A DNA stretch of 64,000 nt from positions 563-64,562 of the forward strand of contig JBGOYZ010000001.1 in NCBI GenBank assembly GCA_041479945.1. The letters are read 5' to 3'. The stretch comes from Thermoproteota archaeon (lineage in GTDB: Archaea; Thermoproteota; EX4484-205; JAAOZO01). Positions 17,907 to 21,734 of the stretch are shown piece after piece. Under the pieces are notes generated by a model, which saw only the letters and a program-made list of their open reading frames with translations, was not told where the DNA came from and did no database searches. How positions within the stretch are numbered: the stretch's first letter is position 1; each line of letters opens with the position of its first letter. The translations under genes were made by a program, and so were the position numbers.

Positions 17907-20900
17907 ATGAGTAGAGAACTAGAAGTAAAGTCGATCGATTCCATAACCTTTGGACTGCTGAGTCCGGCTACCATAAGGAAGATGTCCGTTGTTGAGATAA
18001 CCTCAGAGGAGGTCTACAATGAGGATGGTACTGCTGTGCCTGGAGGCGTGATGGATCTTCGACTTGGAACCATCGAACCCAGCCAACGGTGTCATACCTG
18101 TGGCAACCCCCCGACTCGGTGCCCGGGACACTATGGGCACATTGAGCTTCCAACTCCGATTGTCAATTATCTTTTCGCCAAGGAAATCCACCTCCTTCTG
18201 ACGATCACATGCAGGTCTTGTGGTAGGATACTCCTCCCTGATGAAAAGATCACGGATTATGGACAAGAGATGGCCAGATATCAGAAAGAATTCGGAGCCA
18301 TTCCCAACAAGATCTACTCCCAGATCATCCGGGAGGCAAAACGCATGGCCAGCTGTCCTCATTGTGGCTCCGCTCAATATGTGGTCAAGCCGGTCAAGCC
18401 CGCGGGCTTCTTTGAAGTCACCCCAGAGAAGATCACAACCAAGCTTACCCCAGCTATGGTGAGAGAACGGCTTGATAGGATCCCAGATGATGACCTTGTC
18501 TTGGTGAGGCTCGATCCCGAACTGGGTAGGCCAGAATGGATGGTGTTAGAGGTACTTCCAGTGCCACCAGTGCAGGTTAGGCCCTCGATCATACTTGAAA
18601 CCGGGGAAAGGTCGGAGGATGACCTCACGCACAAGTTGGTTGACATAGTTCGAGCCTCACAGCGCATGAAAGATGCCTTAGAGAGTGGTTCGTCACCCAT
18701 GATCGTCCAAGATTTCGATGAGCTCCTTCAGTATCACGTGACCACGTATCTGGACAACGAGGCCACGGGCGTTCCTCCATCCAGACATAGAACGAACAAG
18801 ATACTGAGGACCCTGTCTCAGAGGTTGAAAGGGAAGGAAGGTAGGTTCAGGAAGAACCTATCGGGGAAGAGGGTGGATTTCTCGGCTAGAACCGTGATAT
18901 CTCCCGACCCGTCGATCGCTGTGGATGAAGTTGGGGTTCCGATAGATGTTGCCATGGAGCTGACTGTCCCAGAGAAGGTCAACCCATTCAACAGAGAGGC
19001 ACTTCTCGCTCTTGTGAAGAACGGGGCATCGAAGTATCCAGGGGTCCGATATGTGATAAGGCCGGACGGCGCTAGGATAAAACTTGAGTTCGTGAAGGAT
19101 CTGGAGGCGTTCGCTGAAAGCGTCGCCGAGGGATTTATCGTCGAAAGACACCTACTTGACGGAGACTACGTTGTTTTCAACCGCCAGCCATCTCTTCACA
19201 GGATCTCGATGATGGGGCACAAGGTACGCGTGCTTCCTGGCAGAACCTTCAGGCTCCACCCCGCTGTCTGTACCCCGTATAACGCTGACTTCGATGGGGA
19301 CGAGATGAACTTACACGTTCCGCAAAGCGTCGAGGCGGTAGCTGAAACCAAGGAACTGCTTCAGGTCATGAAAAACTACATCACGCCCAGATACGGAGCG
19401 CCAATCGTGGGTGCCATAAGAGACTTCGTCACCGGTGCCTATCTGCTGACGCGCTCTGACACGGTTCTCACTAGAAAGGAGTTCTTCATGCTCCTTGAAG
19501 CCGCTGGAGTGGACCGAAACCGCATAGAGTCAGCTATCAAGAAACCGAAAGCGACATGGTCAGGCAAAGAGGCGTTCAGCGCGCTCCTGCCTGCGGATCT
19601 GCACTACAAAACTAGGGCGTCGGTTTGTGCGAACGATCCGAAATGTGACGAGGACAGCTGTCCTCATGAAGGCTTTGTGGTCATAGAAGATGGTGTGTTA
19701 CTGAAGGGAGTAATGGACAAGGCTTCCCTGGGTGCTGAGAAGCCTGCAACCATCATTCACGAAATCCTGTTGAACTACGGTGAAGTAGAGGCCCACAAGT
19801 TCCTGACATCACTCACTCGAATGATATCCACGTTCCTGAAGCTCAGAGGATTCAGTATGACTTACGCTGAACTCATCCTATCTGATCAGGCAAAAGATTG
19901 GATAGAGAGGGATCTCTCATCCGCGGACGACCGCGTGGCCGAGGTCATCTCTCAGTTCAAATCGGGAAAGTTGCAGAAGATACCCGGCCAGTCACAGGAG
20001 GATTCAGTGGAGGCCTACATCATGGACGTGCTCTCTGACATAAGGACCAGAACCGGCGAGTTGGCCAGCAAATCCTTGGGGCTCGACAACAGCGCGGTTG
20101 TGATGACGAGGACCGGTGCTCGGGGTTCCGATCTCAACTTGGGCCAAATGTGTGCGGCACTGGGGCCACAGCAGGTCCGTGGCAAGAGGATCTCAAGGGG
20201 GTATCTCGGGAGACCTCTTCCACACTTCAGGAGAGGAGACATTGGACCTGCTGCTAGGGGATTCATCAAGTCAAGTTACATGACAGGGCTTTCACCGGTT
20301 GAATTCTTCTATCACAGCATGGGAGGGAGAGAGTCATTGGTCGACACAGCTGTAAGGACGCAGCAGAGCGGATACCTCCAAAGGCGTCTGATTCACGCCC
20401 TTGAAACCCTGAAGGTGGAATATGATGGCACCGTGCGGGATCCATACGAGAACATCGTGGAGTTCATCTACGGTGACGATGGTCTGGATCCCGCGAAGAG
20501 CTACCACGGCAAGTTCCCAGTGGAGACGATAATCCGCAAACTCGCCTCATCAATGGACGTCAAGCTCGGTGTCAAGGCTGACAAGGTCGCAATCAGATCG
20601 GCGGTTGCCGCAAGAGTCAAGGACATTCCTCCCCTCATAGCGAAGGAGCTGGAGGGTGCGCTCCTATCACTTGGTGCGGATCCAGCGAGGGCACCGGAGG
20701 TAATCGACGCTACCTTGCGCAGGTATCTTGAGCTCACCGTGGACCCAGGCGAGTCCGTCGGGGTAATAGCGGCCCAGTCAATTGGTGAACCCGGGACGCA
20801 AATGACACTCCGAACCTTCCACTACGCCGGCATAAAGGAGGCCAACGTAACGCTGGGCCTTCCTAGGCTAATAGAGCTCTTGGACGCGAGAAGGATTCCC

Positions 20901-21734
20901 AAGACGCCATTGATGGAAGTTCATCTCTCCCCGGAGTATCGCGAGGATCAAAAGGAGGTTCTCAAAATCGCTAGGAGGATGCCATACACCTCTGTTGAAG
21001 ACATCGCCTCTGAAATCAAGATTCAGCAGTTCAAATCCGTGATAACCATAGGACTCTCAAAAGAAATGATGGTGGAGAGAGGGGTAACTCCGAAGAAGCT
21101 CCAGAGGAGTCTGATCGAAGCCGGCTTTAGACCCAGAAGGGAAAAGAAATTCGAGATCTCAATCACTGTCAAGGATTCTGAGGGAGACCTTACTCCGGTC
21201 GTCGACAAACTGAGAAAGGTTCCAGTCTCCGGCTTGTCGTCTGTTTCTAGGGTCACAGTCCGGGAAAAGGACGGCGAGTGGGTCATATTCACGGAGGGAT
21301 CCAATCTGATGGAAGCCTTGAAGATGCCAGAGGTTGACAAGACCCGGGTATTCACAAACAACATTCACGAGATCGGCGAAGTCCTAGGAATAGAGTCGGC
21401 CAGGACTGCCTTGGTCAAGGAGCTGAAAGACACTCTGGAGGAGCAAGGGCTTGATGTTGATATCAGGCACATAATGTTAGTGGCGTCCGCGATGACTACC
21501 TCCGGAAGGGTCAAACAGATAGGTAGGCACGGTCTCTCAGGAGAAAAAGTGAGTGTGCTGGCTAAGGCCGCGTTCGAGAGGACCATTCCCACACTAGTGG
21601 AGGGTGCCATCACCGGTTCAACAGATCACATGAGAGGAATGACTGAACGTGTCCTTGCAGGCGAGGAGATCAAAGCTGGGACAGGCATGATCGACGTGTA
21701 TGTCGATCTTAGGAAAGGTTTAACTCAACAATAA
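17907..21734 (+). CDS. rpoA: DNA-directed RNA polymerase subunit A, fused A' plus A''
   Basis: 1275-aa continuous ORF. It contains the RpoA' N-terminal zinc motifs, the [10 protein letters not shown] active-site motif, and the RpoA'' trigger-loop region [28 protein letters not shown], all in one frame with no stop or frameshift. Confidence 0.9.
   Translation: [1275 protein letters not shown]

Follow-up and report, generated by a model that had tools for sequence, protein, structure and literature searches.

Does the genome of an uncultured archaeon encode the largest RNA polymerase (RNAP) subunit on one gene where other archaea use two and, if so, was the single gene inherited, rejoined from two halves, or created by an assembly error? 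The question is raised by the rpoA locus in a stretch of 64,000 nucleotides from contig JBGOYZ010000001.1 of a Thermoproteota archaeon (the whole stretch is hereafter called the window), in which a sequence-only reading had noticed the A' and A'' regions of the subunit in one 1275-residue frame without an intervening stop, next to an unsplit rpoB. Our analysis bears out both observations: the gene reads as an unsplit, "A-type" archaeal rpoA that is ordinary and functional and whose fused state was inherited with its lineage, and we assign this reading a probability of about 0.93.

A single frame encodes the A' and A'' parts of RpoA

The open reading frame (ORF) list and the translation agree on a single 1275-codon frame on the forward strand, with an ATG start and no internal stop; at ~0.04 stops per random codon, simple arithmetic puts the chance of such an open frame at ~1e-23. 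Rpb1 domains 1–5 (Pfam PF04997, PF00623, PF04983, PF05000 and PF04998) all lie in this frame and all score far over their cut-offs, and the motif positions (Table 1) place the catalytic loop of the A' part and the trigger loop of the A'' part on the same polypeptide. We take residues 806–833 to be the bridge helix, an assignment made from established knowledge of RNAP.

Profile models and chains of known structure delimit the two parts. The NCBIfam A' model NF006336 aligns RpoA residues 6–880 with profile positions 5–878 of 883 (1214 bits vs. a cut-off of 819), and TIGR02390, with a cut-off of 1042.55, gives 1208 bits; the NCBIfam A'' model TIGR02389 aligns residues 908–1266 with profile positions 3–366 of 367 (417.8 bits vs. 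a cut-off of 420.65). In the PDB, residues 3–865 of the Sulfolobus A' chain (880 residues in the Saccharolobus/Sulfolobus structures) match RpoA residues 7–870 with E=0, and residues 18–386 of the A'' chains (392–395 residues) match RpoA residues 905–1264 (residues 105–464 of the fragment used as query) with E=1e-94. Because the match to the A'' chains is full-length and collinear, the A'' identity of the C-terminal part is secure despite the marginal TIGR02389 score, and the A''-like character that had been claimed for the last ~390 residues is upheld. The lengths of A' and A'' add up to 880 + 392 = 1272 residues vs. 1275 in RpoA; the match is collinear, with no insertion, and RpoA is therefore the seamless collinear sum of A' and A''.

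The same frame recurs outside the window. Gene calls on 21 independently assembled contigs give an identical 1275-residue RpoA, each time from one gene, and the four occurrences displayed come from four samples (SRR35969287, JGI 3300031952, JGI 3300035701 and ERR4334732). Relatives at 97, 87, 86, 85, 71, 64, 64 and 60% RpoA identity are all 1272–1280 residues long and contain all five Rpb1 domains, and the rpoA frame is also continuous in the relatives L085, L086 and L087.

The A'/A'' junction is a variable but constrained loop

The junction had been predicted near residues 880–900. In an alignment with eight split-type loci, their A' stop codons and A'' start codons fall opposite RpoA residues ~883–892, within that range. 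Among 39 fused homologues, residues 882–906 form the second least conserved 25-residue stretch of RpoA and contain indels; the mean pairwise identity is 0.20 there vs. 0.56 across the whole protein. Codon comparison with the relatives at 86% and 87% identity gives proportions of nonsynonymous (pN) and synonymous (pS) differences of 0.08 and 0.74–0.76 for the whole of rpoA, and of 0.21–0.26 and 0.65–0.68 for the junction residues 866–910, with omega of ~0.17–0.19. The ratio of pN to pS at residues 866–910 shows translation and purifying selection across the junction, with a constraint on the linker looser than in the rest of rpoA.

An AlphaFold2 model of RpoA residues 760–1275 (516 residues; mean predicted local distance difference test score, pLDDT, 65) shows a helix (872–882), a coil (883–892) and a second helix (893–903) in one small helical module with a pLDDT of 81–85; the bridge-helix and trigger-loop parts of this fragment are of low confidence and were left uninterpreted.

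We also considered Met883 as a relic internal start. This residue lies near the aligned A'' start methionine of split lineages, yet it is not conserved in the relatives at 86%, 87% and 71% identity, and no Shine-Dalgarno-like (GGAGG-like) motif precedes the in-frame Met883 within rpoA; we treat its position near the A'' start as a coincidence.

Fused and split rpoA among archaea

Unsplit rpoA has been described before. In the compilation of Nunoura et al. 2011 (PMC3082918, Table 1), Thaumarchaeota, Korarchaeota and Caldiarchaeum have RpoA marked "fusion", and Crenarchaeota and Euryarchaeota have it marked "split"; a single unsplit rpoA is reported for Nitrososphaera and other Thaumarchaeota by Zhalnina et al. 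2014 (PMC4084955); and Da Cunha et al. 2017 (PMC5484517), who call the two forms A-type and A'A''-type, find the A-type in Thaumarchaeota and Korarchaeota, place a single split of the gene after Korarchaeum had diverged, and record a secondary fusion for Pacearchaeota. Because these three papers document fused rpoA, the feature is textbook for part of the Archaea, and the unsplit rpoA of the window represents an already known state; they also confirm what the sequence-only reading had said of Thaumarchaeota.

We typed 80 genome loci (L001–L080) by ORF structure, among the matches listed by a tblastn search that was ranked with the full fused protein as query. In 72 of these 80 loci rpoA keeps to a single open frame, truncated in a few by the end of the contig, and all loci of Bathyarchaeia, Nitrososphaeria, Aigarchaeota and Geothermarchaeota are fused; so is every Brockarchaeota-labelled RpoA examined. 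Split genes are found in the other eight, namely three loci of Hadarchaeota, two of Methanosarcinales and one each of Hodarchaeota, Tiamatella and Woesearchaeota. All eight split pairs are in the same frame, seven of them with a single stop between the halves.

The notion that a split always amounts to one nonsense codon was nevertheless rejected as an artefact of ranking: tblastn can extend through an in-frame stop, so a full-length fused query over-ranks in-frame split loci. A second sample (L088–L167) consisted of metagenome contigs found with an A''-only query; here 16 split loci are out of frame and only 2 of 18 are in frame, vs. 8 of 8 with the full-length fused query. In this second sample, whose ranking follows similarity to a Hadarchaeota A'' and which does not amount to a census, fused loci are roughly as many as split ones among the archaeal-like loci, and the statement that almost all archaea split the gene was overstated.

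Three of the 80 loci (L021, L074 and L079) contain a Bathyarchaeia-like fused archaeal rpoA with 51–53% identity to that of the window and bear the labels "Candidatus Methylomirabilota bacterium", "Methanocella sp." and "Aquificota bacterium", respectively; they are probably mis-binned contigs in those metagenome-assembled genomes (MAGs).

Phylogenetic placement of the window

The nearest named relatives by RpoA identity are Brockarchaeota-labelled and "Thermoproteota archaeon" MAGs (56–57%), followed by Bathyarchaeia (~53%) and by Nitrososphaeria and Aigarchaeota (48–51%); RpoB identities give the same order (58%, then 52–55%). The phylogeny of the fused protein that had been suggested as a check was run as a bootstrapped neighbour-joining (NJ) tree. 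All 39 fused RpoA sequences are monophyletic with a bootstrap of 100, and their sister is a split-type crenarchaeon; a further clade, also with a bootstrap of 100, unites the window with its environmental relatives and the Brockarchaeota-labelled sequences, and the environmental relatives at 60–97% RpoA identity form a sub-clade of their own. The window falls outside Nitrososphaeria in this tree. No 16S rRNA gene was found in the window by an Rfam scan at gathering thresholds; a near-complete relative genome exists (Ga0315312_1000004, 1.47 Mb).

The window lies in a large clade in which unsplit rpoA is the rule: Nitrososphaeria/Thaumarchaeota, Aigarchaeota, Bathyarchaeia and Geothermarchaeota, together with Korarchaeota according to the literature. 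It may come from a deep-branching lineage sister to hot-spring and hydrothermal Brockarchaeota (RpoA 57%, RpoB 58%), a placement to which we give slightly less than even odds; the clade shared with Brockarchaeota-labelled sequences has a bootstrap of 100, but it comes with an identity of 57% and from a single-protein NJ tree. The paper that describes the Candidatus Brockarchaeota lineage (PMC8065059) was searched for a statement on RNAP and contains none. If the placement is correct, the window adds one more deep branch with unsplit rpoA, which would be of modest help in locating the single split event on the archaeal tree and would bear on the debate on archaeal rooting that Da Cunha et al. 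tied to the rpoA character.

Proposed organization of the fused subunit

The gene encodes a complete, conserved Rpo1 whose catalytic, bridge-helix and trigger-loop elements are intact. We propose that one 1275-residue polypeptide combines the contents of Rpo1N (A') and Rpo1C (A''), which are separate subunits in Crenarchaeota and Euryarchaeota: the A' part provides the Zn motifs, bridge helix and catalytic DFDGD loop, the A'' part provides the trigger loop and the jaw, and the halves are joined by the short variable loop at residues 883–892, between two helices predicted to pack into one helical module, at the very position where split-type lineages place a stop codon and then a new start. Such an RNAP would work exactly as in split-type archaea, and the sole consequence of the fusion would be the obligatory 1:1 synthesis of both halves on one chain.

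Alternative explanations

Two other origins of the single frame have to be weighed against inheritance. An assembly or sequencing artefact, in which a missed stop or an indel error merged two adjacent genes, would be in keeping with a window that is probably a metagenomic assembly and with the apparently artefactual break in rpoB of one comparison MAG (L059); however, the identical protein on 21 contigs, with its four displayed occurrences from four samples, the constant length and domain set of eight progressively more distant relatives, and the mostly synonymous divergence across the junction all speak against it, and we regard an artefact as excluded for practical purposes. The sequence-only reading had itself offered a lineage-specific re-fusion, by which the ancestor had a split rpoA'/rpoA'' pair and the loss of the stop codon, with an adjustment of frame where needed, rejoined the halves. 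A secondary fusion has been reported before, for Pacearchaeota (PMC5484517); the loop at the junction is variable and tolerant, so that rejoining would do no structural harm; and where A' and A'' are in frame with one stop between them, as in 2 of the 18 split loci, a single point mutation could fuse them. Yet A'' is in another frame in 16 of those 18 loci, for which stop loss alone is usually insufficient, and all relatives on the window's side of the tree are fused, from 97% down to ~45% identity. With the fused clade supported at a bootstrap of 100, a re-fusion would need to be older than the whole Thaumarchaeota/Aigarchaeota/Bathyarchaeia/Brockarchaeota assemblage and hence would not be lineage-specific. 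As the fused sequences are monophyletic and every relative of the window is fused, inheritance is the simpler reading, and a re-fusion is very unlikely.

A further possibility concerns the meaning of the fused gene rather than its origin, namely that it identifies the window as DNA of a thaumarchaeon (Nitrososphaerota). An unsplit rpoA is indeed present in Thaumarchaeota (PMC4084955, PMC5484517), and the Nitrososphaeria loci among the 80 listed are all fused; but the RpoA of the window is closer to Brockarchaeota-labelled sequences (57%) and to Bathyarchaeia (~53%) than to Nitrososphaeria (48–51%), RpoB identities fall in the same order, and in the NJ tree the window and the Brockarchaeota-labelled sequences share a clade with a bootstrap of 100, which leaves a thaumarchaeal assignment scarcely credible. 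Several points weigh against our own preferred reading, that of an inherited A-type gene: confidence in the AlphaFold2 fragment is limited to the helical module at the junction; the 80 genome loci include neither Korarchaeota nor named Brockarchaeota genomes; the RpoA tree is a distance tree of one protein with a crude correction, in which the order of the major fused groups is weakly supported (bootstrap 17–61); and internal initiation or proteolytic processing at the loop may occur, being compatible with the sequence, the single chain of ~142 kDa being a prediction.

Comparison with known RNA polymerases

The A-type RpoA of Thaumarchaeota, Korarchaeota and Caldiarchaeum resembles that of the window in being a single ORF of ~1270 residues beside an unsplit rpoB, in the gene order rpoH-rpoB-rpoA-L30e-nusA, with its junction at the same alignment position. 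At 48–51% identity, the A-type proteins of Nitrososphaeria and Aigarchaeota belong to a different lineage but are no different in architecture. The Brockarchaeota-labelled (P0009 and P0012) and Bathyarchaeia proteins are likewise 1271–1283 residues long with five Rpb1 domains, although 57% identity between the window and the Brockarchaeota-labelled sequences implies a deep split for such a conserved protein. The split Rpo1N and Rpo1C of Saccharolobus/Sulfolobus and Thermococcus (PDB 2PMZ, 2WAQ, 4QIW and 7OK0) are collinear with the window's RpoA, with the same motifs and a similar total length, but they are two chains from two genes, with the break at window residues ~883–892, whereas the window has one gene. 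Eukaryotic Rpb1/RPC1 is a single chain like that of the window, with a core similarity of E ~1e-250 to Rpb1, but the window's RpoA is shorter (~1275 vs. 1390–1970 residues) and has neither the heptad repeats of the C-terminal domain (CTD) nor eukaryote-specific insertions. By similarity and gene context, the RpoA of the window is clearly archaeal.

Annotation and significance

The concern that annotation pipelines expect two genes is real: in NCBI and JGI records, fused RpoA proteins of ~1275 residues are named "subunit A'", because the A' model passes easily and TIGR02389 falls just below its cut-off (417.8 vs. 420.65 bits). The label is a naming quirk, not biology, and genomes of the fused clade can look as if they were without rpoA''.

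As a taxonomic character, fused rpoA does no more than place the window in the broad fused-type clade; it does not make the window thaumarchaeal, nor can it alone do so for any contig. The "strong lineage marker" for Thaumarchaeota proposed from the sequence is too narrow, as the A-type also occurs in Korarchaeota and Caldiarchaeum (PMC3082918) and in Bathyarchaeia, Aigarchaeota, Geothermarchaeota and Brockarchaeota-labelled sequences. Whether rpoA is split or unsplit counts as a known rare genomic character, on which arguments over the root of the archaeal tree have drawn (PMC5484517); the window adds one uncultured lineage to the unsplit side and leaves the overall picture unchanged.

The rpo cluster and other genes of the window

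The gene order around rpoA (Table 1) is that expected of the archaeal cluster, rpoH-rpoB-rpoA-L30e-nusA, and matches the order described in PMC10833476. A TATA-box-like element precedes rpoH, and the block GTTAAAATAAG at this element is kept in the 86% and 87% relatives; it is a candidate promoter of the rpoH-rpoB-rpoA cluster. The same 83-residue rpoH is called in the relative L086. An unsplit rpoB is likewise usual: of the 80 comparison loci listed, 66 have it as one ORF, with splits confined to Methanosarcinaceae and Woesearchaeota loci, plus one probable frameshift. In that last case (L059:2445-5994) rpoB appears as two overlapping ORFs, with the break at about residue 380, in a MAG that is otherwise of the fused type; the usual B''/B' split lies near residue 510, as in L065 and L078, and a frameshift error is likely because the break is off this position.

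The rest of the window consists of housekeeping genes. Replication and repair are represented by GINS, both primase subunits, PCNA, PolB and FEN1; transcription and RNA processing by TFS, rpoL, FttA/aCPSF1, exosome subunits and a tRNA-splicing endonuclease; and further genes encode AglB, aIF2alpha, L10e, KsgA, proteasome subunits and HMG-CoA reductase. At two places the longest ORF is spurious: the true gene is TFS (9116..9451, reverse strand; TFIIS-type Zn ribbon, E=2e-20) rather than the forward ORF 9137..9487, and ribosomal protein L10e (11305..11790, reverse strand) rather than the forward ORF 11281..11844. Both reverse-strand calls agree with genes called in relatives.

Table 1. Positions of rpoA, its parts and motifs, and other features in the window
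Feature	Position	Strand	Basis or remark
C/D-box-like small RNA (sRNA)	13561..13627	+	Weak Rfam matches to snoZ267 and snoR116, E ~0.6 (E-value scan)
tRNA-Asp(GTC), 14-nt canonical intron plus extra insertion	13654..13762	-	ARAGORN only with introns allowed
tRNA-like gene, 178 nt	13863..14040	+	5' acceptor and D-arm CCCGCTGTAGCTCAGCCTGGTAGAGC, matching 3' acceptor, encoded CCA
tRNA-Lys(UUU), probable; two introns, ~16 nt (near position 33) and ~20 nt (T-arm region)	14087..14198	+	
TATA-box-like element TTAAAATA, ~40 nt 5' of rpoH start	14232..14239	+	Read in sequence
rpoH (Rpo5), 83 aa, TTG start	14277..14528	+	3' end overlaps rpoB start by 4 nt; Pfam RNA_pol_Rpb5_C, E=3e-28
rpoB (Rpo2), unsplit, 1124 aa	14525..17899	+	Pfam Rpb2 domains 1-7; NCBIfam NF006335, 1496 bits vs. 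cut-off 1402
rpoA (Rpo1), unsplit "A-type", 1275 aa	17907..21734	+	Starts 7 nt past rpoB stop
A'-equivalent part, residues 1-882: Zn motifs, clamp, active site, pore, funnel, bridge helix	17907..20552	+	PDB and NF006336
N-terminal Zn-binding motif, residues 62-75	18090..18131	+	Motif location; inside Rpb1 domain 1 (Pfam)
Catalytic Mg-binding motif (NADFDGD), residues 459-468	19281..19310	+	Motif location
Bridge-helix region, residues 806-833	20322..20405	+	Motif location; near-invariant in alignment of 27 relatives
A'/A'' junction, ~10-residue loop, residues 883-892	20553..20582	+	Alignment to eight split loci
A''-equivalent part, residues 893-1275, with trigger loop and jaw	20583..21734	+	PDB A'' chains and TIGR02389
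Trigger-loop region, residues 948-975	20748..20831	+	Same frame as catalytic motif
Ribosomal protein L30e	21755..22048	+	Pfam Ribosomal_L7Ae; same gene called in relatives
Archaeal NusA (KH domains), 145 aa	22045..22482	+	KH_2; KH_NusA_2nd on identical gene in L081
Ribosomal proteins S12 and S7, then EF-1alpha; rest of str/L30e cluster	22518..25079	+	
RNA 3'-phosphate cyclase RtcA	25802..26872	-	
tRNA-Ser(GGA), 40-nt intron	35543..35657	+	Rfam tRNA, 41.4 bits; ARAGORN with introns allowed
tRNA-splicing endonuclease	46743..47297	+	

Small RNA genes upstream of rpoH

Between a DUF655 gene on the reverse strand and rpoH on the forward strand lies a 960-nt stretch (13319..14276) without a convincing ORF. 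Its conservation in the relatives at 86% and 87% identity is strong, with 81% mean column identity and long invariant blocks; ARAGORN at default settings and an Rfam gathering scan gave no match within it. The small RNA and tRNA features placed here in Table 1 came from more permissive searches. The C/D-box-like sRNA varies hardly at all across three genomes and has a terminal stem, GGCGAC...GTCGCC, on its flanks. For the probable tRNA-Lys(UUU), brute-force deletion combined with ARAGORN returned 33 consistent solutions, and its intron boundaries are approximate. The 178-nt tRNA-like gene is kept in relatives, and introns would have to account for ~100 nt of its length; since brute-force removal of one intron plus one canonical intron gave no tRNA solution for this segment, the gene may contain three introns.

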